DNA from: Candidatus Tectimicrobiota bacterium
Lineage (GTDB): Bacteria > JACPUC01
Direction of reading: 5' to 3'
Assembly: GCA_016192455.1 (NCBI GenBank)
Contig: JACPUC010000019.1
Location: 124,001 to 188,000 of the forward strand
DNA: 64,000 nt
Part shown: positions 25,787 to 40,431 of the stretch, one piece after another
How positions within the stretch are numbered: the first letter of the stretch is position 1
Layout of the letters: each line of letters opens with the position of its first letter
Notes under the pieces: generated by a model
The model's database searches: none
What the model saw: the letters and a program-made list of their open reading frames with translations, nothing else
What the model was told of the DNA's origin: nothing
Position numbers and translations under genes: made by a program

Positions 25787-28540
25787 CTACAGGGTGCGCG
25801 CCTCCTCCTCAACGCGGTAGAACTCCAGGATATCGTTCTGCTTGATGTCGTTGAACTTTTCGATGCTGACGCCGCACTCGAAGCCGCTGCCCACCTCGCG
25901 CACGTCCTCCTTGAAGCGGCGCAGCGACCCGACCTTGCCGGTGTAGACGAGAACGTTATCGCGGTAGATGCGCGCCAGGGCATCGCGGCGCACCAGTCCC
26001 TCGTGCAGGTAACAGCCGGCGACCGCGCCGACTTTTTGGATCGTGAAGACCTCGCGCACCTCGGCGCGCCCGAGCGGAACCTCCTTCTGGCGCGGCGCCA
26101 ACATTCCTTCCAGCGCCGACTTCACGTGGTTCAGCGCGTCGTAGATGACGGAGTAGAGGTTGATCTCCACCTTCTCGCGCGCCGCGAGCTCCTCCGCGCT
26201 CGGCATCGGACGGACGTTGAAGCCGATGATCACGGCGTTGGACGCCGAGGCGAGGAGCACGTCGGAGTCGTTAATCCCGCCCACCGAGGAGTGGATGATG
26301 CGCACGCGCACCTCCTCGTTGCCGAGCTTCTCGAAGGAGGCGCCGAGCACCTCGGCGGAGCCCTGCACATCGGCCTTGAGCACCAGGTTGAGCTCCTTCA
26401 CCTCCCCCTGCTTGATCTTTTCGTAGAGGTCCTCCAGATTGACGCGGGCGCTCTTCGCCAGGCCTGCCTCACGCCGCCGGCTGGCCCGCGCGCTGGCGAT
26501 CTGGCGGGCGCGCTTCTCGTCCTGCATGACGACGAAGAGGTCGCCGGCATTGGGCACCCCGCCGAGGCCGAGCACTTCCACCGGCATGGACGGCGGCGCC
26601 AACTCAACGCGCTTGCCGCGATCATCGAGCAGCGCCCGCACCCGACCGGTGTGCACGCCGCACACGAAGGCATCGCCCACGCGCAGGCTGCCATGCTGGA
26701 TGAGCACCGTCGCCACCGGCCCTTTCGAGCGATCGAGCTTCGCCTCGATGACGACGCCTTTCGCCGTGCGCTGCGGGTTCGCCTTCAGCTCCAAAATCTC
26801 GGCTTGCAGCAAGAGCATCTCTAAGAGGCGATCGGTGCCGAGCTGCTCTTTGGCCGAGACTTCACAAAAGATTGTATCGCCGCCCCACTCTTCGGGCAGC
26901 AGGCCCAGTTCGGTGAGTTCGTGGCGCACGCGTTCCGGGTTGGCGTTCTCCTTGTCGATCTTGTTGATCGCCACCACGATCGGCACCTGCGCGGCGCGCG
27001 CGTGGGCCACCGCCTCGCGCGTCTGCGGCATGACGCCGTCGTCAGCCGCCACCACCAGGATGACGACATCCGTGACCTGGGCGCCGCGCGCCCGCATGGC
27101 GGTGAACGCCTCATGCCCCGGGGTGTCGAGGAAGGTGACGGCGCCGCGCGGCGTCTTCACCAGGTAAGCGCCGATGTGCTGGGTAATGCCGCCGTGCTCG
27201 CTCTCCATCACGTTGGAATTGCGGATGGCATCGAGCAGCTTCGTCTTGCCGTGGTCAACGTGGCCCATCACCGTCACCACCGGCGGCCGCGGCTGCCATT
27301 CCGCGGTCTCCTCCTCGATCTCGGCGAGGACCTCATCCTCCTCCACCGAGACCACTTCCGCCTCGATCTCGAACTTCTTGGCGACCTGCACGGCCGCATC
27401 CGTCTCCACGATCTGGTTGATCGTGGAGATGATCCCCATTTCAAGCAGGTGCCGAATCACCTCGGCGCTCTTCACCTTGAGGAGCTCGGCCAGCTCTTTC
27501 ACGGTGACGGCCTCGCCGATGCGCACTTTCTTCGGAGCGGCTTCAGTGACCTCCGCCGGCGCTGGAGGAGCCTCGCCGGCAGGCGCCGCGGCCGCCGCCG
27601 GGATCGGCGACACCGGCTTGCTCCTCGGCGGTTTGGGTGGCGCGGGCATCCTCTCCCTCGGCGCTCGGCGTGTCGGGGGCGCGGCGTGCCTGGGGGGCAC
27701 TGGTCTCGGCTTCGGCGGCGCGGGCCACACCGGCGCCCGCGGCACCTCCACCTCGGGGAGAGGCGCCGCAATTGTCTCGGCAGCCCCCCCAAGGGGTTCC
27801 TCGACGACGATCTGCCTCGGCTGCTCGGGTATCGGGGCCACGGGCGGGGCTTCGATTGGCATAGTCAGGTCCCTAACGGCAGCCGCTTCTTCTCGTTCCT
27901 CGGCTTCCTCTTTCACCTCGGCCGGAGCGACCACGGCTCCAACGTGAGGTGGGAGTTCCTCTTCTTCGCGCCTGTGCGCGGCGGCTTCTTCCGCAACCTC
28001 AGGCTGCGGGATCACTGCGGCTCCCGCGCGCGCCCTTTCCACCACGTCAGCATAGCCGGGCGCTCGGGACTCCACCCCCTCCTCCTCAGCCGCAGGGGGC
28101 CAGGCCACACCCGGCTTGGCCGGCACCGGCACCTTGGCCTTCGGCGCTTTCGGCAGCACCGCCGCGGCGCCGATGCCGCGTCCCTCTTTCCGGGGCGGCA
28201 ATCCCTTGCTGGGCTCAGCGCGCAGCGGCTGTTTCTTGGGGATGACGAAGGCGCGCGGCGTTGCCTGTGGCGCCGCTTTCTTCATGGGGGTCGCCGGGGG
28301 CGCGGCGGGGGGAGCCGCCACCGCGGTGGCGCCGGCGGCGCGCTCGCCGGCAGGGCTCTGGCGCGCGCCCGAGGACACACCGCCGCGGTTGTAGTAGGCG
28401 CGCAGCTCGCCTGCTACGGACGCGTCGATGGCGTTCATGTGCGTCGTCACGTCGACCCCGCGCTTCTTCAGCTCTGCCATCAACTGCTTGCTATCAATTT
28501 CAAGCTCTTTAGCAAGCTGGTACACCCGAATATTTGCCAT
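25787..28540 (-). CDS. infB: Translation initiation factor IF-2
   Basis: IRVYQLAKEL N-domain, GHVDHGKT, DTPGHEAF, NKID, KADVQGS, SLRRFKEDV. Confidence 0.98.
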   Translation of the reverse strand: MANIRVYQLAKELEIDSKQLMAELKKRGVDVTTHMNAIDASVAGELRAYYNRGGVSSGARQSPAGERAAGATAVAAPPAAPPATPMKKAAPQATPRAFVIPKKQPLRAEPSKGLPPRKEGRGIGAAAVLPKAPKAKVPVPAKPGVAWPPAAEEEGVESRAPGYADVVERARAGAAVIPQPEVAEEAAAHRREEEELPPHVGAVVAPAEVKEEAEEREEAAAVRDLTMPIEAPPVAPIPEQPRQIVVEEPLGGAAETIAAPLPEVEVPRAPVWPAPPKPRPVPPRHAAPPTRRAPRERMPAPPKPPRSKPVSPIPAAAAAPAGEAPPAPAEVTEAAPKKVRIGEAVTVKELAELLKVKSAEVIRHLLEMGIISTINQIVETDAAVQVAKKFEIEAEVVSVEEDEVLAEIEEETAEWQPRPPVVTVMGHVDHGKTKLLDAIRNSNVMESEHGGITQHIGAYLVKTPRGAVTFLDTPGHEAFTAMRARGAQVTDVVILVVAADDGVMPQTREAVAHARAAQVPIVVAINKIDKENANPERVRHELTELGLLPEEWGGDTIFCEVSAKEQLGTDRLLEMLLLQAEILELKANPQRTAKGVVIEAKLDRSKGPVATVLIQHGSLRVGDAFVCGVHTGRVRALLDDRGKRVELAPPSMPVEVLGLGGVPNAGDLFVVMQDEKRARQIASARASRRREAGLAKSARVNLEDLYEKIKQGEVKELNLVLKADVQGSAEVLGASFEKLGNEEVRVRIIHSSVGGINDSDVLLASASNAVIIGFNVRPMPSAEELAAREKVEINLYSVIYDALNHVKSALEGMLAPRQKEVPLGRAEVREVFTIQKVGAVAGCYLHEGLVRRDALARIYRDNVLVYTGKVGSLRRFKEDVREVGSGFECGVSIEKFNDIKQNDILEFYRVEEEARTL

Positions 28541-28627
28541 TGCCTCTCCCCAGTTCCCCGCGTCGCCCGAGCCTCGTTAGCTCGGCACGGACTAAGAATC
28601 CCTCCGCCTCGGCCCGGCGGGCGCAGC

Positions 28628-30322
28628 TTACGGCGCTCGCGGCTCGGGGGAAGCGTCGGCGGCTCCCCCTTCCGGCACAAGGCTCGCGTCAGGTTCCTGA
28701 GCGTCCTCCCCGCCAGGCAGGCCCGCGGCTGGGCTGCGGGGCTCCTGGCTCTCCTCGGATGCCGCAGCCTCGGCGGGCGGTGGCGCGGCCGCCGGCGGCT
28801 CACTTTCGTCCTGGGGCGCCTCAGCGTCGCCCGCGTCGCGCAGTTCCGCCGCCGGCTCCGTGTCGGGTTGGGGCTCGCCGGCGAGGTCCGCCACGGCCGC
28901 AGGCGTCTCCGGGATCTGCTCCTCCTGCGGCTGGGGCGCGGCAGCCGCCGGTTCCGCAACCGCCGCTGCCGATGGCGCCGCCCCCGGGAACTGCAGACGT
29001 TTCTCCAGGCCGCCTCCCAGGGCCGCCGCCAGCAACTGCGCCTGGTGGGCCTTGCGCGCCGCCAGGCAGGCCGCAACCTGCTCCCGCAGGAAGGGAAGGT
29101 ATTCCTCGGTCATGCCGGGAACCTTCAGCAGCTCCTCATCAGTCGCATCACGAATGGCCTGCACCTTCTCGAACCCAGCTTCGCGGAGCTGGGGGAGGAA
29201 CTCCGGGTTGACGCCGGTCAGCGCCTCAAGGGGCACCGGCGCGTCACCGGAGAGCGCCTCGCGGGCAATGCCCAAAGCCGCCGCGGCCACCTCGCTTTCG
29301 CCCCTGACGCTAATCTTCCAGCCGGTGATCCGGGCGGCCAGCCTGACGTTTTGCCCCTTCTTGCCGATGGCCAGGGAGAGCTGATCGTCCGGGATGACGA
29401 CCTCCATCGTTCCCTCCGCATCCTTCTGAATGATCTTCACCGGCTTGGCGGGAGCCAGGGCATTGCGCACGAAGCTCTTCGCGTCTCGATCCCAGGCAAC
29501 GATGTCGATCTTCTCGCCGTGCAGCTCCTGGACGATGGCCTGGACGCGCGAGCCGCGGGTGCCGACGCAGGCGCCGACAGGGTCCACATCCCGATCGTGG
29601 GAGTAGACGGCGATCTTCGAACGCCCGGTCGGCTCGCGCACCGTTCCCTTGATCTCGACGATCCCCTCGGCGATCTCCGGCACTTCCAGCTCGAAGAGCT
29701 TCTCGAGGAGCTTCGGATTCGTGCGCGAGACGATGATCTGCGGTCCGCGCGACTCCTTGCGCACCTCGAGGACGTACACCCGCAGCCGCTCGCCACGCCG
29801 GAAGGTCTCGCGGAAATTCTGCTCGCGCCGCGGCAGCACGGCTTCCGCCTTGCCAAGGTCGATGATGAGGTCGCCGCGTTCGTGGCGCTGGGCCATGCCG
29901 CTCACCAGGTCGCCCTGCCGCTTGTGGTACTCCTCGTAGACCATCTCGCGCTCGGCTTCGCGCACGCGCTGCACGATCACCTGCTTGGCCGTCTGGGCCG
30001 CGATGCGTCCAAACTCCTCGACATCGAGGGAGGTGGTGATGAGGTCGCCGATCTGGGCTTCGGGGTTGATGCGCTTCGCCTGCTCGAGGGTGATCTCGCG
30101 GCCGGGGGAGATGACGCGCTCCACCACCTGCTGGTTGTGAACGAGCTCGATCTGTCCAATCGCCATATCCAGGTGGGCGGTGATATCGGCGTTATGCCCG
30201 TAACGCTTCCGGGCGGCGGTGAGGAGAGCGGCCTTCATCGCCTCGACCATCACCTCTTTCTCAAGCCCCTTTTCGCGGCTGAGCTGGTCGATCATGAAGA
30301 CGAGTTCCTGGTTTACCGACAT
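28628..30322 (-). CDS. nusA: Transcription termination/antitermination factor NusA with acidic low-complexity C-terminal tail
   Basis: FGRIAAQTAKQ, S1, KH domains (GACVGTRGSR, AIGKKGQN), HhH-like acidic repeat; ATG after GGAG. Confidence 0.97.
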   Translation of the reverse strand: MSVNQELVFMIDQLSREKGLEKEVMVEAMKAALLTAARKRYGHNADITAHLDMAIGQIELVHNQQVVERVISPGREITLEQAKRINPEAQIGDLITTSLDVEEFGRIAAQTAKQVIVQRVREAEREMVYEEYHKRQGDLVSGMAQRHERGDLIIDLGKAEAVLPRREQNFRETFRRGERLRVYVLEVRKESRGPQIIVSRTNPKLLEKLFELEVPEIAEGIVEIKGTVREPTGRSKIAVYSHDRDVDPVGACVGTRGSRVQAIVQELHGEKIDIVAWDRDAKSFVRNALAPAKPVKIIQKDAEGTMEVVIPDDQLSLAIGKKGQNVRLAARITGWKISVRGESEVAAAALGIAREALSGDAPVPLEALTGVNPEFLPQLREAGFEKVQAIRDATDEELLKVPGMTEEYLPFLREQVAACLAARKAHQAQLLAAALGGGLEKRLQFPGAAPSAAAVAEPAAAAPQPQEEQIPETPAAVADLAGEPQPDTEPAAELRDAGDAEAPQDESEPPAAAPPPAEAAASEESQEPRSPAAGLPGGEDAQEPDASLVPEGGAADASPEPRAP

Positions 30323-30477
30323 CGGATCTCCTTCGCGGCGGCTGTCGGGCGCTCCCACTTTCTACTTAGAAGGAGAAGACGCTCCGGCGCACGGGCAATC
30401 CCCGGCGCTGCGGCTGCGAGCAGGCGCTCCGCGGGGCAACCCAGCCCTGCGCCCGGTATCGCTCAGCCCCGGCTCAA

Positions 30478-30504
30478 CAAAAAATGGGCCATAGGGCCCA
30501 CTCC
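30478..30504 (-). promoter_or_regulatory. rimP-leader-like hairpin with U-tract (attenuator-like) in the nusA operon leader
   Basis: GGAGTGGGCC-CTAT-GGCCCA-TTTTTTG on the minus strand. Confidence 0.65.
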
Positions 30505-30528
30505 AACACTTGGAGATTGCTTAGCTAA

Positions 30529-30557
30529 AATATAGCTCACGGGAGCGCAAAGTTCAA
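30529..30557 (-). promoter_or_regulatory. Putative sigma-70 promoter of the nusA-infB operon
   Basis: TTGAAC-N17-TATATT just upstream of the leader hairpin. Confidence 0.6.
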
Positions 30558-30766: not shown

Positions 30767-31879
30767 TTACTGGATCATGCGCGATATATCATTAAAGACG
30801 GCAAAGAGCATGAGGAGGATGAGGAATGCCAAGCCGACCTGCTGGGCGATCTCGCGCTTACGCACGCTGACGGGGCGTCCGGTGAGCGCCTCGATGGAGA
30901 AGAAGAAGATGTGGCCGCCATCAAGCAGAGGGATCGGCAGCAGGTTCAAGATGCCAAGGTTGATGGAGATGAGGGCCACGAACTGCGCGTACGGCAACAG
31001 CCCCATTTCGGCCACCTTGCCGGCGGTGGTGAAGATGAGGATGGGGCCGCCGATCGACTTCGCCGGAATCACTCCTTGCACGATCTTGACAATGGCCGTG
31101 ATGGTAAGGCTGATGATCTTCCAGGTCTCGGCAAACCCCTTCCCGATCGCGGCAATAGGGTTGTAGCGCTGGGTGAAGTAGTCGCCGCCGGCCACGATGC
31201 CGACGATGCCCACCTCTTCTTTCTCGCCGAAGAGGTTCGTGTCGGTGCGCGAGGTGGGCGTGATGGTCAGGTCAAAGATGCGGTTCTCGCGCTGGATGGT
31301 GAACTTCACCGGCACGTTCGCTTTCTGGCGCACCACCGCGGTGAGTTCATCCCAGCTCTTCACCTCCCGGCCTTCCAGCGCCACGATCAGGTCGCCGGGC
31401 TGCACGCCGGCGGCGGCCGCCGGCATGTCCTGCCGCACCTCGCCGACGCTCGGTTTCAACACCGGCACGCCGATCAGGTAGACGACCACGAACACGAACA
31501 CCGCCAGGAAAAAGTTGAAGAACGGCCCCGCCGCGACGACGCTCAGCCGCTTGCCCACCGACTGCGTGGAGAAGGCCCGGGCCGGGTCGATCGGCGGCGC
31601 TCCCTGGGGTTGCTGCCCGGCAGCGTCCGCCTCTTTGGCGGCCGCTTCGAGCGAGCCCGGCTCTTCCCCATACATCTTCACGTACCCGCCCAGGGGAACC
31701 GCGGAGAGCACGTATTCGGTCTCGCCGAAGCGCCGGCGGAGGAGCTTGGGCCCAAAGCCGAGCGAGAAGGTTTCGACGAGGATTCCCACGCGCTTCGCGA
31801 CCAGGAAGTGACCCAGCTCATGGACGAAGATGAGCACGCCGAGCGCCACGACTGCGGAAAGGATGTACGAGATGGACAC
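30767..31879 (-). CDS. rseP: RIP metalloprotease RseP (M50 family, one PDZ)
   Basis: HELGH, FSLGFGP, PLGGYV, AGP, NLLPIPLLDGG. Confidence 0.96.
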   Translation of the reverse strand: MSISYILSAVVALGVLIFVHELGHFLVAKRVGILVETFSLGFGPKLLRRRFGETEYVLSAVPLGGYVKMYGEEPGSLEAAAKEADAAGQQPQGAPPIDPARAFSTQSVGKRLSVVAAGPFFNFFLAVFVFVVVYLIGVPVLKPSVGEVRQDMPAAAAGVQPGDLIVALEGREVKSWDELTAVVRQKANVPVKFTIQRENRIFDLTITPTSRTDTNLFGEKEEVGIVGIVAGGDYFTQRYNPIAAIGKGFAETWKIISLTITAIVKIVQGVIPAKSIGGPILIFTTAGKVAEMGLLPYAQFVALISINLGILNLLPIPLLDGGHIFFFSIEALTGRPVSVRKREIAQQVGLAFLILLMLFAVFNDISRMIQ

Positions 31880-32025
31880 GCTTCAGCATCTCCACGCATG
31901 AACTTTGGAACACGGGGTACTGCCAGGCTTCCTACTCGGCAGGAGCCCCGGAGAACCGCAGTAGGGAAGAAGAACCATCCACCCTGCTCGAACCACGCAA
32001 GCCACACCATCCCTCTCCGCAGAGA

Positions 32026-32787
32026 CTAGCGCCCCGGCCGAGGAGCAGCGGGGGAGGTGATGATCTCCACCCCCGCTAGAGGTTGAAAGGTAAACGTCCC
32101 CGCCTCGACGTCTCCGTTCACCTCGAGGTTGGAGAGGAAGAGCGTGGTGGTGTTGCCGAGGATGTCAAAGGTCGTAACCCGCTTCACCAGGAGGCCCTGC
32201 CGATCCACGAAGAGCAACATCCTCGTAACGGTAGTATGGGGAACTTTCGGTCGCAGTTGCAAGCCATATTCATCGGCCTGCGTTTGGCTGGAATCCTCCA
32301 CCTTCTCGAGGTCAAAATCCTGCCGCAGTCTCCCCTCGCCGGACAAGAAAGCCCGCACAAAATCATCCTGACCGGCCGCCGCCTCGATCATCACCTGGTT
32401 GCTGGCCGGAAAGTAGAGCCAGAGTGTGGTGCCGTCGGAGATAATGAGCCGCTTATCCGGCTGCGCGTACTCCCAGCGCATCTTGCCGGGTTTCACGATG
32501 ACGACACGACCCACGGCCGTGCGGGTTCGCCCCAGAGCTTTGTTGTAGGCCTCCTGCCGAAAATCGGCGCGCAAGGACTCTGTACCTTGGTAGCGCGCCT
32601 GCACGAGGTCGGCTATCTCCTGCAGAGAGGGGGTCCCTTCCCCGGCCTGTTGCGCCAGGGGGACTTGGGCCAGACTGACTGGTGCCAGGAGAACTGGAGC
32701 CAGGGCGAGGAGCCCGAGGAGCATGGCGAGGAGTTGAGGTAAAAGCAGACCTGGGACCCTCCGGGGATATGCTGGTGTACGACGCAT
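32026..32787 (-). CDS. lolA: Outer-membrane lipoprotein carrier protein LolA
   Basis: Signal peptide; ADFRQ, KPGKMRWEY, ISDGTTLW, D..GN.T, F.F.P..GVEI. Confidence 0.85.
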   Translation of the reverse strand: MRRTPAYPRRVPGLLLPQLLAMLLGLLALAPVLLAPVSLAQVPLAQQAGEGTPSLQEIADLVQARYQGTESLRADFRQEAYNKALGRTRTAVGRVVIVKPGKMRWEYAQPDKRLIISDGTTLWLYFPASNQVMIEAAAGQDDFVRAFLSGEGRLRQDFDLEKVEDSSQTQADEYGLQLRPKVPHTTVTRMLLFVDRQGLLVKRVTTFDILGNTTTLFLSNLEVNGDVEAGTFTFQPLAGVEIITSPAAPRPGR

Positions 32788-32968
32788 CAATGGTCTTGGC
32801 CACGCCGCGGCAGATGACCCTGCACGGACTGCAGCAGCGCAGGAGTTGCAACGCGGCGGGCGCGAAGACGCCCCCCGTCGCTGGGATCAAGCGCTCACTC
32901 CGGCGCCTGGCCTCGCCGGCGCGCCGCCGGGCGGCGCTGCACCGCGCTCGCGCGAGGCGCCGCGGCGC

Positions 32969-33613
32969 TCAGCCCTCCTTGACAGCCATGGAGGGCGAAA
33001 CAGGCCCGGGCTGGCCGCCGAGCACGCGCCGCCCCTGACGTCGCAGTCGGTTTTCGGCGACAAGCTGGATGGCCCGTGGGTAGATCTCGTGCTCGCGTTC
33101 GAGGATGCGGGCCGCCAGGGTCTCGGCGTCGTCCTCATCGTAGACCGGCACGGCCGCCTGCAGGATGATGGGGCCGGTGTCCACGCCTTCGTCCACGAAG
33201 TGCACCGTACAGCCGCTCACCTTGGCGCCGTGCTCGAGCGCCGCCCGCTGCGCCTCGAGGCCCGGAAACGCCGGCAGAAGCGAGGGATGGATGTTCAGGA
33301 TGCGTTGCGGATACGCCGCCAGCAGGCGCTTGCCGAGGATGCGCATGTAGCCCGCCAGGCAGACGAGATCCACCTCGTGCGCCTGCAGAACTTCCAGCAG
33401 CCGGGCGTCATACTCCTCGCGGCGCTCCCCTTTTCGCGCTGGCACGCAGACGGCGGGAACGCCGGCGCGTCGCGCCCGCTCCAGCCCGTAGGCGTCCGCC
33501 ACATTGCTCAGCACCACCGCCACCTGCGCCGCGCACGTTCCCGCGGCGCAGGCGTCGAGGATGGCCTGCAGGTTGGTCCCACGCCCTGAAATGAGGACAC
33601 CGAGGTTCAGCAT
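32969..33613 (-). CDS. purN: Phosphoribosylglycinamide formyltransferase
   Basis: LISGRGTNLQA, LAGYMRIL, NIHPSLLP, GCTVHFV, DTGPII. Confidence 0.97.
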   Translation of the reverse strand: MLNLGVLISGRGTNLQAILDACAAGTCAAQVAVVLSNVADAYGLERARRAGVPAVCVPARKGERREEYDARLLEVLQAHEVDLVCLAGYMRILGKRLLAAYPQRILNIHPSLLPAFPGLEAQRAALEHGAKVSGCTVHFVDEGVDTGPIILQAAVPVYDEDDAETLAARILEREHEIYPRAIQLVAENRLRRQGRRVLGGQPGPVSPSMAVKEG

Positions 33614-33739
33614 GTCGTTCAGCACGCCGGCGGACTCTCGCCCCCAAGGGCGGAACCGACGCACGCCGCACCGCTTCCGAGGTCGCCGGCCACCGGCGGC
33701 GCCGCTTCGGCGGAGGTGGTGTGACGCTCGCCCGGCTTT

Positions 33740-35902
33740 TCAGGCCGCTTTGATCTTGTGGAGGAGCGCGGCGTTTTCGGTGTGTCCGGTCATCCGCGCC
33801 ACGATCTTGCCGCGCACCGGCCGCCCGAGGAGGTAGAAGTCGCCGATGATGTCGAGAATCTTGTGGCGGACGAGCTCGTTCGGATAGCGCAATTCGGTGT
33901 TGATCACCCTGCCGTCATCAATGAGGATCACATTATCAAGCCGGCCGCCACCGGCCAACCCTTGGCTGCCGAGGACCTCGAAATCCTTCACGAAGCCAAA
34001 GGTGCGTGCCGGGGCAATCTCCTGGCGGAAGGACTGCGGCCCTTCGTAGACGAACTCGTGCGTCTGCCTGCCGAGGGGCGGCGGATACTCCAGGGTATAC
34101 TCTACCCGGAACGTATCGGATGGTTCAATGGTGATGCGCTTCCCGGCCGCCCCATTGCCGTCAACGGAAAAGGTGTCGGTGATGACGATCTCCTCGAACG
34201 GCGCGTCCTGCTCCTCGATGCCGCCATCCTCGATAAGCTGACAGAAATCAATGGCCGAGCCATCCATGATCGGCACCTCGTCGTTCATCTTCACGAGCAG
34301 GTTGGTGATCTGATACATGTGGAGGACGGCCATGAGGTGCTCCACCGTGCGCGCCACCGCGGTGCCGTTCTGCAGGCAAGTGGCGTAGAGGGAGGAGCTG
34401 ACGTAGGAGAGGTGGGCCGGGATGAGCTCGCCGGAGGAGATGGAGCCGAAGTTGATGCCGCTGTTCGGTGGCAGCGGCAGGAGGATGAGCCCGGTTTTCA
34501 AGCCGGAGTGCAGGCCCTGCCCGCAGAGCACCACGCTCCGCTTCAGGGTCCGCTGACGTCGCCCATAGGGGCTGGCGCTGAGGCTGCCGCGCAAGCCGTA
34601 CGAGCGGACCTTGCGCTCCAGGCGATGCGCATCCATCCGCAGGCGCTCTGCCACGCTCTTCAGCTCCCAGTTGTTCTTCTTCAGGTGATAGCTGATGAAC
34701 TCACGCTCCCAGGCGCGTCGGGCTTCGTCGAGGGATTGGAAGCCCTCGAAGCCGATGGTGGGGCGGATCGCTTCGCAGCGCAGCGGGTACGGGAGATCGG
34801 CGAGGTGAATGCACCTCGTCGGCGTCGCCAGGACGACGCGCTCGATGGTCGTCTTCAGCTCCTTGACGTTGCCCGGCCAGGAGTAGTTCACCAGCGCCGC
34901 CAGCGCTTCGTCATCGATCTCTCGCGCCGGGCGACCCGTGAGGTTGGCGAAATACGTGATGAAGTATTGCAGGAAGAGCGGCAGATCGCTGCGGCAGTCA
35001 CGCAAGGCGGGGATGCGGCACGGCTCGTCGGCGAAGAACTCGGACCGCAGCAGGCCGCCCTCCTCCGAGAGCTGCACGGGGTTCGTTGCTGAAACGAGGA
35101 GGCGGAACCCCGCCGCCTCCTCCTGCCAAGCTGAGCGGAGCAGCTCGAGCAGGTGGGTCTGCCCCTCGAGCAAGAGCTGATCCACATTGTCGAGGAACAG
35201 GCTGCCGCCGTTGAAGGCGGCAAGCGGAGCTTTCCCGTTCGTTGCCGCAGGTTCGGGGTGGCACGCCGCCAGCAGGTCCTCGCTGCGCAGGCGGTGCGGC
35301 AGCGTGCTGCACAACACCTTATAGAAGGGCCCCTCGCGGAAACGACTCTCGGCGTGCACGAACCGCGCCGCAAACTCCTTCCCCGCGCCCACCTCGCCGA
35401 CGATGAGCAGGGGTGTGTCGCCCTGGGCCTCTTGGAGGAGGCGTCGGCGCACGGCCCGCAGCTTGGCGCTGCGCCCGAGCCACGGCTGCCGGTCCGCCTC
35501 GACCTCCAGGTGGCGCACCCTGATCCTGGCCAGCTTGTGGTGCTCGAGGGCCTTGTTGACGGTAACCAGGACCTCGTTGATGGAGAACGGTTTCTCGATG
35601 TAATCGAAGGCGCCAAGCTTGGTCGCCTTGACCGCGGTGTCGATGTTGCCGTGGCCGGACATCATGATGACCTGCACCTCGGCGCAGACCTGCCGGATTG
35701 CCTGCAAGGTCTCGAGACCGTCCATGCCGGGGAGCCAGATGTCGAGCAGGACGAGGTCGGGAGGGTCGTTATGCACCACCGCGAGCGCCGTCTGGCCGTC
35801 GCCGACCTGACGGACCTCGAACCCCTCGTCGCTGAGGATGCCGGCAAGGCTCGTTTGAATGCTCGGTTCATCGTCCACAATGAGAATCTGGGCGCGTTGC
35901 AC
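33740..35902 (-). CDS. lpxC: Fusion protein: NtrX-like response regulator (REC + degenerate AAA+ + Fis-type HTH) joined to UDP-3-O-acyl-N-acetylglucosamine deacetylase
   Basis: REC: IVDDE, LLDIWLP, MSGHG, EKPF; AAA: GEVGAGKE, WPGNVKEL; LpxC: QRTL...GQGLHSG, TVEHL, EVPIMDGSA, IAPARTFGF, RHKILDIIGD, TGH; single uninterrupted frame. Confidence 0.93.
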   Translation of the reverse strand: MQRAQILIVDDEPSIQTSLAGILSDEGFEVRQVGDGQTALAVVHNDPPDLVLLDIWLPGMDGLETLQAIRQVCAEVQVIMMSGHGNIDTAVKATKLGAFDYIEKPFSINEVLVTVNKALEHHKLARIRVRHLEVEADRQPWLGRSAKLRAVRRRLLQEAQGDTPLLIVGEVGAGKEFAARFVHAESRFREGPFYKVLCSTLPHRLRSEDLLAACHPEPAATNGKAPLAAFNGGSLFLDNVDQLLLEGQTHLLELLRSAWQEEAAGFRLLVSATNPVQLSEEGGLLRSEFFADEPCRIPALRDCRSDLPLFLQYFITYFANLTGRPAREIDDEALAALVNYSWPGNVKELKTTIERVVLATPTRCIHLADLPYPLRCEAIRPTIGFEGFQSLDEARRAWEREFISYHLKKNNWELKSVAERLRMDAHRLERKVRSYGLRGSLSASPYGRRQRTLKRSVVLCGQGLHSGLKTGLILLPLPPNSGINFGSISSGELIPAHLSYVSSSLYATCLQNGTAVARTVEHLMAVLHMYQITNLLVKMNDEVPIMDGSAIDFCQLIEDGGIEEQDAPFEEIVITDTFSVDGNGAAGKRITIEPSDTFRVEYTLEYPPPLGRQTHEFVYEGPQSFRQEIAPARTFGFVKDFEVLGSQGLAGGGRLDNVILIDDGRVINTELRYPNELVRHKILDIIGDFYLLGRPVRGKIVARMTGHTENAALLHKIKAA

Positions 35903-36041
35903 GCAGGATTTCCTCCGCAGCGAGGCAGTCTCGATATCAGGGAGAACGCGGCGAAACCGGCACGATCACGGCGGACGGCCGGCGGCTGAGGCGGGCGACC
36001 TGGCGCCGGCGGCGGCGCTGCACGGGCCGCCCCGCCCGCGG

Positions 36042-38336
36042 CTACGCCACCGAGCCCAAGTGCGGCAGCGCTCGCCGATTGGGCGCCGAACGCGGCAGCT
36101 CGATGACGAACGTCGCGCCCTCGTGCTCGTTCGGTTTGGCGCAGATCGACCCACCGTGGTCCGCGATGATGCGGTTCACGATCGCCAGCCCAAGGCCGGT
36201 GCCGCGTTTCTTGGTTGAGAAGTAGGGCAGGAAGAGGCGCTCCAGGTCGTCGGCGCCGATGCCCCTGCCGTTGTCCCGCACCTCGATGCGCACGTGGTCC
36301 TCGGCGTCGAGGAGCTCGGTGCGGATGTCGACGCGTCCGCCGCTGCCGTTCATCGCTTCGATGGCGTTCTCGATCAGGTTGATGAAGACGCGCCGCATCT
36401 GCTCTCCATCGAGGCTCATGGTCGAAATCCGCGGGTCGTGGTGCGCCTCGATGCTGACGTAGCGGTGCGAGCTTTGGTAGAGGAGGACGACATCGTCGAT
36501 GATCTGGCGCAGCTCGTTGGGACGCGGCTTGGCCTCCGGCATGCGGGCAAACTTCGAGAACTCGTTCACCAGGGCTTTCAACCCTTCCACCTGTTCGATG
36601 ATGGTGCCCGTGCACTGCGCCAGGAGCTCGCCGAAATCGCCGCCGTTGCTGCGATACTGCCGCCGCAGCCGCTGCGCCGAGAGCTGGATCGGCGTCAGCG
36701 GGTTCTTGATCTCGTGGGCCAGGCCCCGTGCCACCTCGCGCCACGCCGCCACCTTCTGCGCCTTGATGAGCTCGGTGAGGTCATCGAACACCACCACCAT
36801 GCCACGGTAGGCGCCGGAGGCTTCGCAGAGCACGGCGACGCTCGTGAGCAAGGTGACGAGGCCGCGCTCGGTCTGCACGGTGATCTGATCCTCGATGCTC
36901 GGCCGCCGCTGCTCGTGCATGCGTCGGATGAGGTTGCGGATGAGGTTCAGCTCGCTGGCGTGAAAGACCTCCCGGTAGTGGCGCCCGCGCAGCGCTTCCG
37001 GGCGGCGCCCCAGGATGCGGGCGGCGGACTTGTTGATCGTTGAGATGCGCCCCGTGCTGTCGATCGAGATAACGCCGGTGGCGATGCTCTCCAGGACGGT
37101 CTCCATGTAAGTGCGGCGCTCGTCCAACTCGAGGTTGGACTGCTTCAGCTCGAGGTTGGCGCGATGCAGCTCCTGGCGGCTCTTGCGCAGGTCGTCCGTC
37201 ATCTGATTGAAGGCGCGCACCAGGGTCCCGACCTCATCATCGACCTGCACGTCGATGTGCACGTCGAGGTTGCCGGCGGCCACCCGCCGCGTCCCTTCGG
37301 CCAGCTCCTCGATGGGGATGGTGATGCGCTTGGCCAGGTAGAAGGCCAGCCAGGTCCCGGAGAAGACCAGAGCCAGGGTGATCATGAGGAAGGTCATGAT
37401 CTGCACCGAGGTGACCGGCTTGCGCAGAAGTTTCAGTTGTCGGTACTCCTCGAAGGTGCGGTTGATCGCCCCCATCCGGGCGACGAGGCTGCGAGGTACG
37501 TAGTACGATACGACAACCAGTCCGAGCGAGGGTTCCGCCGCGCTCTTGCGAATCGGCTGGATGCCGCGAATCACGTCACCCACCCCGACCGAGGCCACCT
37601 CGGTTGTCGCCTTGCCTTTCAAAGCCTGTTGCAAGACACCCTTGTCGACGCTCAGGAGGATATCGGGTTCGACGCTGGCCCGCTGCACGCCGTGCACCTG
37701 CTGGAGCTTCAAATCGAACACCTGCAGCGCGTCAAGGGGGTGATCACGGACCTCCGTGTCGAGCACCTTGGCGAGCTGCGAGTCATTCTCCTGCTCGAGG
37801 AGGTTGCCCTCCAGCACCTGCCGCATGACGCGCTCGGCGTAGAAGAGGGCCTGGCGTTCGGAGTTGCGGTAGTATTGCTGGGCCACGCTCAAGGAGTCGG
37901 AGAGCGCTTTCTCGACCTGGACGGTGAACCACCCTTCAATACTGCTGCGCACCAGACCGCTGGCAACGAGGAAGAGGAGGATCGAGGGAATCAGCGATAA
38001 GCCCACAAACGCCATGATGAGCTTGGAGCGAAAGCTCCCCCAGGCCTGGCGCCGGCGCTCCTCGAGGACAAATTTCACGAGGTTGCGCAGGATGAGGAGG
38101 ATCAGGAGACTGAGCAGGATGATGTAGAGGTGCTCGAGGGCGAAGACGACAATGTTATTCGCGAGGGACGTGGAGACCCGCAAGCCCTGCAGGTAGATGC
38201 GCACGGCGGTGAGCGCCAGCGCCAGAAGCGTCAAGGAGATGAGGAGGGTGCGGTAGCGCCGTCGCCGCAATTCAGGCAGCTCGCGCCCGGCGGGCGCGGC
38301 GGCGGGCGCGACGACCTTGGCATCAGCCTCTCTCAT
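36042..38336 (-). CDS. ntrY: NtrY-like sensor histidine kinase (TM, periplasmic, HAMP, PAS, HisKA, HATPase)
   Basis: AAWREVARGLAHEIKNPLTPIQLSAQRL H-box typical of NtrY; NLIENA, DNGRG, PYFSTK..GTGLGL. Confidence 0.9.
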   Translation of the reverse strand: MREADAKVVAPAAAPAGRELPELRRRRYRTLLISLTLLALALTAVRIYLQGLRVSTSLANNIVVFALEHLYIILLSLLILLILRNLVKFVLEERRRQAWGSFRSKLIMAFVGLSLIPSILLFLVASGLVRSSIEGWFTVQVEKALSDSLSVAQQYYRNSERQALFYAERVMRQVLEGNLLEQENDSQLAKVLDTEVRDHPLDALQVFDLKLQQVHGVQRASVEPDILLSVDKGVLQQALKGKATTEVASVGVGDVIRGIQPIRKSAAEPSLGLVVVSYYVPRSLVARMGAINRTFEEYRQLKLLRKPVTSVQIMTFLMITLALVFSGTWLAFYLAKRITIPIEELAEGTRRVAAGNLDVHIDVQVDDEVGTLVRAFNQMTDDLRKSRQELHRANLELKQSNLELDERRTYMETVLESIATGVISIDSTGRISTINKSAARILGRRPEALRGRHYREVFHASELNLIRNLIRRMHEQRRPSIEDQITVQTERGLVTLLTSVAVLCEASGAYRGMVVVFDDLTELIKAQKVAAWREVARGLAHEIKNPLTPIQLSAQRLRRQYRSNGGDFGELLAQCTGTIIEQVEGLKALVNEFSKFARMPEAKPRPNELRQIIDDVVLLYQSSHRYVSIEAHHDPRISTMSLDGEQMRRVFINLIENAIEAMNGSGGRVDIRTELLDAEDHVRIEVRDNGRGIGADDLERLFLPYFSTKKRGTGLGLAIVNRIIADHGGSICAKPNEHEGATFVIELPRSAPNRRALPHLGSVA

Positions 38337-38977
38337 AGCTCAGCTTCCCCTTTGGGGATCGTTGCCAGGGTGAACCGCGGCGAACTCTGCCAGTTCGTAT
38401 CAACATCCCAAAGCGAAACAAAGAAGAGCAGGTATTTGAGCGGGAAGATCAACTTGATGGACTTGATCTCGACCTTCGTGCGCACGTAGTACGTTCCCTC
38501 CTGCTTCAGGCGCGCCGGCGGCATGAGGGCCACGCGGTCAAGCCCCTGCAGGAGCTGCTTCACCTTGCTGAAATCTTTCTCGATGGTCTGCGTCGTCACG
38601 CCGCTCGCATCGGTGGTGAAGAGGTACTCCTTCTTGAGCGCATCGTACTTCACCGTCTGACGCACCGCCGTCTGAAAGTCGGTGGCATCGATGCGGAAAC
38701 GCCGGTGCCGGCGGAGCTGGATCAGGTAGGTGAAGGTCGTCGGAATACCGCTGTGAATGGCCTCCTTGATCTCCTCTGTAATTCCTCCCTCCATATTGGC
38801 ATAGACGTGCAGATGGGCTGGCGAGTTCGACACCCGCACCGACGTCAGCGAGGCGCCCTCGGCCCCCCCCAGGACGACCGCGCTGAGGAACAGACCGCCA
38901 AGGAGGATGAGGACACGCCGCCACGACGCCCCCTCGCGGCACCGCCATCCTCTCCCATCCCAGAGGTTTCGCCGCAT
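38333..38977 (-). CDS. DUF4390-like exported protein
   Basis: Signal/TM segment, AIHSGIP.TF.Y...VKYDAL..EY pattern; ATGA overlap with ntrY, the usual position for DUF4390. Confidence 0.75.
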   Translation of the reverse strand: MRRNLWDGRGWRCREGASWRRVLILLGGLFLSAVVLGGAEGASLTSVRVSNSPAHLHVYANMEGGITEEIKEAIHSGIPTTFTYLIQLRRHRRFRIDATDFQTAVRQTVKYDALKKEYLFTTDASGVTTQTIEKDFSKVKQLLQGLDRVALMPPARLKQEGTYYVRTKVEIKSIKLIFPLKYLLFFVSLWDVDTNWQSSPRFTLATIPKGEAEL

Positions 38978-39083
38978 CTCGGCGGAGGCTGCCCCGCAAC
39001 CACCTGGGGAGAATTGAGCAGAAGACGCCAGCACAATCTACCTCCTCGCGCCGGGGACGGCGCGAGCTACTGCGGGGGCTAGA

Positions 39084-39112
39084 ACCTTAAGTACTTTCTT
39101 AAGACTTGTAAA
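39084..39112 (-). promoter_or_regulatory. Putative promoter of the DUF4390-ntrY-ntrX/lpxC operon
   Basis: TTTACA-N17-TAAGGT in AT-rich patch with upstream T-tract; two CTTAAG palindromes overlap it. Confidence 0.55.
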
Positions 39113-39501
39113 TCAAAGTCCCAAAAAAAACAAGCAGTAATTCTATCCCTCTGGCTCGCTCTCCGAACCGCCGAACGCCGCCCGCGGTTGGCGCCACCTG
39201 GCATGCGGCCTTCATTTGGACGCCTCAGGAGCGAGCGGCAAGCCAAGGGGGCATCGGCCAGCCGTGAGGACCAAGGAGAGGCGTCGAGCCCCGCCCGCAG
39301 GCCAACGCAAGCGGCGGCCGGCAAAACCGCTCCTCCCGTTGACCACGGCTGCTCGGTTGCACCGCGCGTTTCTCACCCCTACCTGCTGATCCAAACGGCA
39401 CGCACCAGGCACCCATTCCCCGCCACGAGGCTCCCTCACCCATCGGAACGGTGCATCCTCTTGAAGGATAACCGGCTGCGGGGACGAGATCGACCGGCGC
39501 C

Positions 39502-40431
39502 TCAGCGTTTTGCTTGACTCTGAAAGTAGGCCAGCGTGGCCCGGATGCCCTCGGGCAAGGAGACGCGCGGCTCCCAGCCGGTGAGGTGCCGCAGGCGCGC
39601 GGGGGAGACGGAGCTGTGGCGCTGCTCCCCCTCCTTCGCCGGGCCATGCTGGGGCACCCAGGCGCGCCCGGCGGCCTCGCCGATCATCCGGTGGATGTCG
39701 AGGATCGACGTCTCGCGGCCAGTGCCGACGTTGTAGATGCCGTCAAGGGGATGCGCCAGGAGCGCCAGGGCAGCCCGGCAGACATCCTCGACGTAGACGA
39801 AGTCGCGGCTCTGCTTGCCGTCCCCATTGATGACGGCGCGCCGCTGCTCCAGGACGGCCTTCGCAAAGATCGCCACCACGCCGGCTTCGCCGTACGGGTC
39901 CTGGCGCGGCCCGTAGACGTTCCCCAGCCGCAGGGCCTGCCAGCGCATGCCGTGGGTCTCTCCGTAGGCGCTCAGGTAGCGCTCCACAATCAGCTTGTGG
40001 ATGCCGTAAGGACAGGCGGGTTCAGTCACCGCCTCCTCCGTCGTCGGCAAGACCTCCTGCTCGCCATAGACGGCGCCGCCGGATGAGGCGAAGAGACAGC
40101 GCGGCACCCCCGCCTCGACGGCTGCCTGGAGCATCGTGATGGAGCCATCGACGTTGATCGCGGCATCTTCGATGGGATGCTCCACCGAGATGCGCACGCT
40201 GACTTGGGCGGCGAAATGCAGGATCGCATCAATCGTGGAACGGTTGAAGACCGAGCGCCAGACCTGGGCCTCGCGGATATCCCCGGCCGCGAAGTGAGCC
40301 TTGGGGTGAAGGAATTCCGCCTTGCCGGTGCTCAGGTTATCGAGCACCGTCACCTGGTGCCCCGCGGTCAGCAGGTGATCGACAAGATGGGAGCCGACGA
40401 AACCGGCACCGCCGCTAACGAGGAGATGCAT
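39502..40431 (-). CDS. NAD-dependent epimerase/dehydratase (UDP-glucose 4-epimerase-like, extended SDR)
   Basis: GGAGFVG, HFAAQ, ASSGGAVYG, YGIHK (YxxxK), NVYGPRQ, RDFVYV. Confidence 0.92.
   Translation of the reverse strand: MHLLVSGGAGFVGSHLVDHLLTAGHQVTVLDNLSTGKAEFLHPKAHFAAGDIREAQVWRSVFNRSTIDAILHFAAQVSVRISVEHPIEDAAINVDGSITMLQAAVEAGVPRCLFASSGGAVYGEQEVLPTTEEAVTEPACPYGIHKLIVERYLSAYGETHGMRWQALRLGNVYGPRQDPYGEAGVVAIFAKAVLEQRRAVINGDGKQSRDFVYVEDVCRAALALLAHPLDGIYNVGTGRETSILDIHRMIGEAAGRAWVPQHGPAKEGEQRHSSVSPARLRHLTGWEPRVSLPEGIRATLAYFQSQAKR

Follow-up and report, generated by a model that had tools for sequence, protein, structure and literature searches.

An ancient fusion of a response regulator to LpxC as a candidate for direct phosphorelay control of lipid A synthesis

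The 64,000-nucleotide stretch of contig JACPUC010000019.1 analysed here (the window; Candidatus Tectimicrobiota bacterium, assembly GCA_016192455.1) holds one open reading frame (ORF) that joins a response regulator resembling NtrX to a complete LpxC, the committed enzyme of lipid A synthesis, which is essential, an antibiotic target, and subject to controls that form a central open problem in envelope biology. Judged by comparison across genomes, the fusion is ancient, provides the one LpxC of each genome checked and is common to whole phyla. With a probability of roughly 0.6, it represents an lpxC-dedicated two-component system that has moved from transcriptional control of its target to direct phospho-control of the enzyme itself. 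An earlier note on this DNA had proposed such an intact LpxC under phosphorelay control, a mode of which it knew no characterisation in print, and the proposal is now strongly supported by the conservation of the fusion, its status as sole copy and the existence of relatives in which the receiver (REC) domain and LpxC are all that is left.

Results

The earlier note, made from the letters alone, had read a REC domain, an AAA+-like core, a Fis-type helix-turn-helix (HTH) and a full LpxC in a single 720-aa frame. Pfam and NCBIfam confirm this reading; the coordinates it gave for the HTH and LpxC prove accurate within a few bases, and the linker between the two is, as it held, free of methionine (Table 1; all coordinates are positions within the window, and residue numbers are those of the 720-aa fusion protein). 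Specifically, the LpxC domain matches PF03331 at residues 450-718 with 267.9 bits over profile positions 1-267 of 268, passes the LpxC equivalog model TIGR00325 (243.8 bits against a cutoff of 187.25) and aligns end to end with solved LpxC chains, including the catalytic motifs (E=1e-49). The LpxC-FabZ model NF009667 failed (199.7 bits against a cutoff of 465), and Pfam returned no FabZ/FabA domain. Deacetylase activity on UDP-3-O-acyl-GlcNAc is predicted for this half of the protein, with indirect support from its being the one LpxC of a genome that also has LpxB and LpxD. The linker that precedes it is poorly conserved, with a mean majority frequency of 0.27, and pLDDT falls below 50 at residues 440-446.

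The middle of the protein is degenerate. The Sigma54_activat profile (PF00158) matches residues 143-257 at 1e-16 and covers profile positions 3-119 of 168; Walker A is kept as GEVGAGKE, Walker B reads LFLDNV, and the GAFTGA loop is absent. The Fis-type HTH holds in part: in the window protein HTH_8 falls below its Pfam cutoff (E=0.029; 14.5 bits against 22), while the assignment is favoured by helices predicted at residues 391-409, 414-420 and 425-434 of an AlphaFold2 model, by the end-to-end alignment of residues 4-436 with PDB 5m7n (E=3e-64) and by precomputed PF02954 matches in some relatives.

Table 1. Positions of the fused gene, its parts and its neighbours in the window, with conservation across 107 aligned family members (mean frequency of the majority residue)
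Feature	Position	Strand	Evidence or remark	Mean conservation	Columns at least 90% conserved
Fused gene, REC + degenerate AAA+ + HTH + LpxC	33740..35902	-	single ORF, 720 aa plus stop, GTG start		
Shine-Dalgarno GGAGGA	35911..35916	-	8 nt 5' of the GTG of the fusion; read from sequence		
REC domain, residues 6-114	35561..35887	-	Pfam Response_reg (PF00072), 3.1e-32	0.68	41/117
Codon of predicted phospho-acceptor Asp54 (in LLDIW)	35741..35743	-	aligned with LDIW of PDB 5m7n		
Degenerate sigma54-type AAA+ core, residues 142-298	35009..35479	-	partial Sigma54_activat match	0.44	9/157
AAA+ lid domain, residues 301-375	34778..35002	-	AAA_lid_14, 6.2e-19	0.57	8/78
Fis-type HTH, residues 390-436, weak match	34595..34735	-	HTH_8, 5m7n alignment, modelled helices	0.50	2/47
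Linker, residues 437-448 (12 residues), Met-free	34559..34594	-	sequence		
Complete LpxC domain, residues 449-718	33749..34558	-	Pfam LpxC (PF03331), 1.3e-79	0.73	96/270
NtrY-like sensor histidine kinase, 764 aa	36042..38336	-	NtrY_N, HAMP, PAS, HisKA, HATPase_c (Pfam)		
DUF4390 gene, first of cluster	38333..39034	-	Pfam, 3.6e-29; stop overlaps kinase start by 4 nt		
purN	32969-33664	-	Pfam; downstream of fusion		
lolA	32026-32790	-	Pfam; downstream of fusion		

On independent sequence data, this ORF is real and not an artefact. Over positions 33700-36000, Logan contigs from two runs that are a possible source of the DNA match with 0 differences. An independent study supplies a 2,304-nt Logan contig that spans 33740-35748 at ~95% identity and crosses the junction between HTH and LpxC, the place where the earlier note had advised a check, with 103 substitutions and 0 gaps. 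The 39 changed codons comprise 29 synonymous, 10 non-synonymous and 0 stops, in a tally that took in 40 listed substitutions and left out 89 further ones. One further run, X5, yielded short pieces only over the stretch.

The fusion is also widely distributed. In a search of a collection of 5.8 billion proteins, all 120 matches listed (701-773 aa, 98-100% query coverage) carry PF03331, PF00158 and PF00072 together and, apart from the self match, are 43-51% identical to the query. Among 40 relatives compared with the window genome, none of them closer than the same domain, LpxC lies in 757-aa frames in two (G003 and G040), and the others have it in frames of 277-547 aa or give no match. For the phylum of G003, the named close relatives of whose proteins are Nitrospinota, the survey took in 120 genomes, drawn from 9 families and 30 genera. 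LpxC was matched exactly once in each of 108 of them, and 92 of these 108 matches lie in open frames of at least 670 aa, while the 12 LpxC-negative genomes are 59-99% complete. Among the 16 shorter frames, four from one family (514-516 aa) and three from another (460-466 aa) are genuine architectures, as checked in one member per family; several of the other nine abut contig ends. In the phylum of G040, both of 2 genomes carry the fusion. Further names borne by family members are Thermodesulfobacteriota, Candidatus Schekmanbacteria and Candidatus Tectomicrobia. A protein atlas, furthermore, holds a long-form cluster of 381 members, commonest in Nitrospinota, and a REC-plus-LpxC cluster of 83 members of ~430 aa, commonest in Acidobacteriota; a listing of cluster members adds one Nitrospinota name. 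Public databases annotate the fusion proteins as either LpxC or NtrX.

The window genome (4.46 Mb in 31 contigs, 88% complete) agrees with this pattern. The earlier note had called for a search for another lpxC, and within this 88%-complete genome the one LpxC match is the fusion; LpxB and LpxD were also found. The genome is the sole representative of its phylum among the genomes compared and appears to belong to a poorly sampled deep lineage, and the sequencing runs that contain the window DNA are labelled as groundwater metagenomes.

Within the family, constraint is unevenly spread. The alignment of 107 members (86 long, 12 middle and 9 short) indicates that constraint is strongest on REC and on LpxC and weaker on the AAA+ core and the HTH (Table 1). 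The motifs that had been singled out from the window sequence, namely the acidic pair, phospho-Asp, Ser/Thr and Lys of the receiver and the zinc and catalytic motifs of LpxC, are present and invariant throughout. Specifically, D10, D11, D54 and K104 occur in 107/107 relatives, position 82 is Ser in 71 and Thr in 36 (Ser or Thr in 107/107) and position 101, the aromatic switch residue, is Phe or Tyr in 107/107; in LpxC, E521, H522, T634, F635, H680, K681, D684, D688 and H707 are each found in 107/107. In the LpxC family these residues serve as zinc ligands and catalytic residues, and E521, H522, T634, H680, D684, D688 and H707 correspond to E78, H79, T191, H238, D242, D246 and H265 of Escherichia coli LpxC. 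Walker B has Asp at its first position in 51/88 members and Glu at its second in 7/88 (DN in the window), and a GAFTGA-like motif occurs in 0/86 long fused forms; with this motif missing and the Walker B Glu lost, a functional sigma54 enhancer-binding protein was rejected.

The shorter members of the family are the most informative. Locus L015 encodes REC, a Lys/Asn-rich linker, an HTH and LpxC in 514 aa, and L019 encodes REC, a linker of ~55 residues and LpxC in 447 aa; each fusion is directly preceded by the kinase gene. Many such shorter proteins of 429-516 aa were returned by a second database search, and on reading their sequences the linkers vary between groups, with a remnant of the first AAA+ helix kept in one (P0126). 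In a tree of LpxC domains, one branch with SH-aLRT support of 100 splits 107 fused domains from 11 stand-alone LpxCs. On this tree the short architecture requires five changes, of which at least four are forced by starred branches, and the middle architecture two, of which at least one is forced. The tree by itself does not separate gain from loss; the changes are read as losses, since independent insertions of one homologous module into a single site, time after time, would be implausible. The AAA+/HTH module thus appears to have been lost at least four times, leaving REC-LpxC. All residues of the receiver phospho-site are kept where LpxC is the only remaining partner, which argues for direct control of the enzyme, and this intact receiver in forms that lack AAA+ and HTH is the strongest argument for such control.

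The regulator half can be traced to a related, unfused module. 'NtrX-type', the label given in the earlier note, stands as a statement of resemblance: the NtrX model NF051870 is the best curated match of the fusion, PDB 5m7n the best solved structure, GAFTGA is lacking and the kinase is of NtrY type. It does not stand as orthology. Against an equivalog cutoff of 600 bits the model gives 283, along profile positions 2-452 of 452, and other NtrC-family regulators of the window genome, canonical sigma54 activators included, score higher (320-401 bits), none reaching 600; the reading as an NtrX ortholog is ruled out on these grounds. A scan of genome contigs with the single fusion protein brought up, among the matches listed, three distant regulators. 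Scanning metagenomes with the family alignment returned 80 loci, two fused and 78 with unfused regulators. An NtrY-like kinase lies directly upstream on the same strand in 59 of these 78; 11 have too little DNA, and 8 have room and no match. A GAFTGA-like motif is found in 36 of the 71 unfused regulators of judgeable length, and Walker B DE in 65 of the 68 relatives matched by a regular expression.

Some of these unfused modules are tied to lpxC. A separate lpxC lies just upstream of the kinase, on the same strand, in 6 of the 34 unfused loci with at least 2 kb of upstream DNA, and in a seventh locus (L047) the 3' end of lpxC sits at the contig edge; all 7 of the lpxC-linked regulators have GAFTGA. 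The order in L043 and L070 is lpxC, DUF4390, kinase and sigma54 regulator by Pfam, the kinases matching NtrY_N at 6e-13 and 3e-12 and the regulators being full sigma54 proteins of 237-240 bits with HTH_8. A -24/-12 sigma54 element (TGGCAC or TGGTAT, five nucleotides, then TTGC, or CTGC in L102) precedes lpxC by 23-77 nt in 6/6 complete linked loci, two of the lpxC start positions being estimated, and four of the five matches scoring at least 9 in 152 kb, both strands, are these lpxC-upstream elements. No element scoring at least 8 was found upstream of the window DUF4390 gene or of the fusion.

A tree of the regulator half places the 24 fused sequences in one clade (SH-aLRT 100), which joins, again with support of 100, a clade of 18 rows that holds six of the seven lpxC-linked loci and in which 16 rows have GAFTGA and two do not. 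Linkage to lpxC is found in 5/9 loci with enough DNA in this joined clade and in 1/25 elsewhere. Descent of the regulator half from sigma54-type response regulators of an lpxC-dedicated module is the best explanation of these alignments and trees. On the enzyme side, fused LpxC domains are 57-66% identical to that of the window across phyla, and stand-alone LpxCs 34-48%. A second LpxC tree with 17 stand-alone enzymes again recovered the fused clade with SH-aLRT 100, its apparent sister being a join of two long branches. The fused clade sits on a long stem, with ~2.7 changes per column separating its base from the closest stand-alone LpxC; either fusion was followed by fast change of the enzyme or phyla exchanged the fused gene.

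In the window, the NtrY kinase that the earlier note had placed beside the fusion lies directly upstream on the same strand. Its NtrY_N match, 23.2 bits (E=5e-5), is exactly at the cutoff. Five Nitrospinota genomes (G113, G064, G117, G077 and G060) hold one ortholog of this kinase each, unlinked to the fusion, at 577-614 bits over nearly full length, with the next match at 167 bits or less in all five; the distance to the fusion is ~90-220 kb in four of them and ~1.26 Mb in G117. In G113, judging by ORF sizes only, no response-regulator-sized ORF stands beside the kinase ortholog, and neither this ortholog nor the fused regulator appears to have its partner gene alongside; tRNA methyltransferase- and GreA-like genes, as read from translations, lie upstream of the fusion. 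DUF4390 also precedes the kinase in unfused loci (L043, L070, L072 and L089), with lpxC on its other side, and looks like a conserved accessory of the kinase; its N-terminus in the window reads like a signal or membrane segment. The second-best NCBIfam match of the window kinase is a Leptospira kinase of the LIC_11548 family (263 bits). A 2025 review (PMC12655853) describes LIC_11549 as a sigma54 activator of NtrC-like type and cites a predicted promoter of sigma54 type ahead of lpxC in Leptospira. Spirochaetes may have this lpxC module as well.

Downstream of the fusion, the order purN-lolA is kept in 7/10 Nitrospinota loci, with rseP as well in 6/10, and fusion-purN-lolA is also found in L015, L017 and L042. 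The order fusion-purN-lolA-rseP (30767-33664 in the window from rseP to purN) is thus common to this genome and Nitrospinota; LolA and RseP are envelope proteins. A scan of 32800-39600 gave 0 promoter-like and 2 terminator-like sites; shuffled sequence gave more. A probe for LapB with profile PF18073 matched only RadA in the window genome. Nothing in five genomes exceeded the cutoff of NF008757, which gave many TPR matches; this model, listed only as 'PRK11788.1-5', we take to be LapB, although the database title did not confirm it. Two further observations concern the window at large. ARAGORN calls a 94-nt tRNA-Cys at 32564-32657 inside the lolA ORF, where the Rfam tRNA model is silent at its gathering score; the Rfam model finds the three other tRNAs of the window, and the call is probably a false positive. 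A 1,204-aa frame on the plus strand (26921-30535), opposite a 576-aa ORF whose translation reads like NusA, looks spurious, as do numerous further long antisense frames in the window; such frames are usual in DNA of ~65% G+C.

Discussion

In the working model that we consider most likely, the NtrY-like kinase would respond to a signal related to the envelope, probably jointly with the DUF4390 protein, and phosphorylate Asp54 of the fused receiver. The phosphorylated receiver would then change, for instance by dimerising or by releasing an inhibitory contact as in CheB, and this change would alter the output of the attached LpxC, so that flux into lipid A would be set post-translationally; the HTH of the long forms may still bind DNA. 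Before fusion, control of lpxC would have been transcriptional and sigma54-dependent, and after it the sigma54 determinants would have gone and the AAA+ and HTH parts decayed. That phosphorylation acts directly on LpxC output, be it activity, oligomer state or stability, is somewhat favoured by the present comparisons; phosphotransfer itself, the direction of its effect and the choice among these three properties we infer from the sequences. The broader proposition, that a family spanning Nitrospinota and several other phyla exchanged sigma54-dependent control of lpxC transcription for direct phospho-control of LpxC, with AAA+ and HTH as a decaying remnant deleted several times, is about evenly balanced.

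The nearest described circuit is found in Desulfovibrio. Rajeev et al. (2011, PMC3333781) report lpxC as the single target of the D. vulgaris regulator DVU2934, which is in an operon with the kinase DVU2931, and place lpxC of S. fumaroxidans directly upstream of the orthologous operon; in D. alaskensis, according to Kuehl et al. (2014, PMC4045070), the kinase Dde_3000 acts on the sigma54 activator Dde_3003, whose apparently only target is lpxC, a gene that carries a sigma54 site. This is the same logic as in the unfused relatives, where an lpxC with a -24/-12 element stands beside kinase and regulator. The Desulfovibrio proteins are separate and act on transcription, whereas the window regulator is covalently joined to LpxC, lacks GAFTGA and the Walker B Glu, and has no sigma54 element found upstream.

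A second comparison is with alphaproteobacterial NtrY/NtrX. The best solved-structure match of residues 4-436, PDB 5m7n, is presumably full-length Brucella NtrX (its database title is 'Nitrogen assimilation regulatory protein'). NtrX shares with the fusion the absence of GAFTGA and a partner kinase with NtrY_N; we know of no NtrX that carries an enzyme. The nearest unfused relatives of the fusion, by contrast, carry GAFTGA. According to a 2023 preprint (bioRxiv 10.1101/2023.06.06.543975), NtrX has no GAFTGA and seems to be restricted to Alphaproteobacteria.

As an enzyme, the fused domain belongs to the same family as stand-alone LpxC and has its full catalytic equipment, although the fused domains form their own clade. 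The fusion ends 13 residues past the last catalytic His, whereas solved Pseudomonas-type LpxC chains run ~25 residues past the aligned region. Known controls of LpxC are proteolysis by FtsH/LapB in enterobacteria and protein partners, and an LpxC-FabZ fusion is also known. For the way in which a receiver might act on LpxC, CheB, PleD, RpfG and RssB, in which a receiver is joined to an output that depends on phosphorylation, offer a model. REC-LpxC is viewed here by analogy with CheB-type regulators, most of all in its minimal forms of 430-480 aa; the CheB-type output domains are not homologous to LpxC.

Several points weigh against direct control or against the history proposed for it. All relatives come from assemblies, many of them metagenomic, and the likeness to DVU2934 and Dde_3003 is drawn from architecture, gene neighbourhood and what the papers say, and not from sequence orthology. 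The trees come from quick searches and contain long branches: the LpxC-domain tree has 118 rows and was made with IQ-TREE, and the regulator-half tree has 101 rows and an arbitrary far-tip rooting. The stand-alone LpxCs linked to the unfused cluster lie at path lengths of 2.67-2.90 from the fused clade and other LpxCs at 2.67-3.42; the linked enzymes are thus not closer to the fused ones, so that the tree does not show, for the enzyme half, that the fusion arose inside the cluster. The AlphaFold2 model of the full-length fusion has confident domains and an undefined domain arrangement (pTM 0.44), and a contact between REC and LpxC is unsupported by the structure and complex predictions made. 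Specifically, the 447-aa REC-LpxC form was modelled with pLDDT 67, pTM 0.56 and a disordered linker at residues 123-173, and a complex prediction of residues 1-125 against 445-720 scored 0.20 against a mark of 0.32, a result that weighs neither way.

The kinase adds to these points. It is adjacent in 3/14 fused loci examined (the window, L015 and L019), and adjacency is lacking in 10/10 Nitrospinota loci and in L041. On this point the reading given in the earlier note needs correction. Finally, the Walker A Lys is present in 86/89 members, and the long forms, which keep Walker A, lid and HTH, may act mainly as DNA-binding regulators.

This last point leads to the principal alternative, in which regulator and enzyme are co-expressed and not coupled: the regulator half would be an NtrX-like, sigma70-type DNA-binding autoregulator, and LpxC a constitutive passenger whose amount is locked to the expression of the regulator. 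The retention of HTH, lid and Walker A in the long forms agrees with it, as do the GAFTGA-less NtrX that is the best PDB and NCBIfam match of the N-terminal 440 aa and the transcriptional regulation of lpxC in the unfused relatives and in Desulfovibrio. As reported by Lemmer et al. (2020, PMC7240162), moreover, R. sphaeroides that has lost NtrYX shows an 8.8-fold rise in lpxC mRNA, with LPS also raised, both indirectly. Against it stand the forms without HTH and AAA+, which arose at least four times and keep the full phospho-site of a receiver that has no DNA-binding output left; the HTH, furthermore, is among the least conserved parts and in the window protein scores under the Pfam cutoff, and no sigma54 element scoring at least 8 lies upstream of the window cluster. 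We consider this alternative unlikely. Considerably less probable still is a reversal of the signal, in which LpxC would report its occupancy by substrate or product to the regulator half and so govern DNA binding, after the logic of trigger enzymes: both halves are intact and LpxC follows the HTH after 12 residues, but as the sole LpxC of the genomes checked, with invariant catalytic residues, it must first be a working enzyme, and such sensing is impossible for the HTH-less forms. An assembly or frameshift artefact, or a pseudogene, made of two genes wrongly joined in a 31-contig, 88%-complete assembly, can be dismissed as far as sequence can tell, for the same architecture recurs in more than 100 non-identical full-length proteins from many sources, as the architecture search recommended in the earlier note brought out, and in single-contig genomes, and the possible-source and independent contigs cross the frame without a gap or, among the changed codons listed, a stop.

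Direct phospho-control thus remains the preferred reading, and its novelty can be delimited. No published description of a receiver-LpxC fusion was found in a literature search that covers few subscription journals and no supplements, and the words 'fused' and 'fusion' are absent from a 2025 JBC review of lipid A regulation. What appears new is LpxC as the output of a response regulator; other response regulators are known to have enzymes as outputs, and lpxC is already known to be controlled by two-component systems. The fused regulator and the kinase are unlinked in the five Nitrospinota genomes, so that their pairing needs biochemical demonstration, and the natural REC-HTH-LpxC and REC-LpxC forms are ready-made constructs for dissecting the protein.

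If the reading is true, direct phosphorelay control would be a new mode of LpxC regulation, and the kinase would be the first histidine kinase to govern the activity of an essential enzyme of envelope biosynthesis by way of a receiver joined covalently to that enzyme. The family would, furthermore, offer a view, seldom available, of how a regulator merged with its one target gene into a single protein, with decay of the transcription machinery to follow. Nitrospinota are globally important marine nitrite oxidisers. Taken together, these findings suggest that, in such bacteria and in the lineage of the window genome, a membrane sensor sets the production of outer-membrane lipid directly at the LpxC enzyme.

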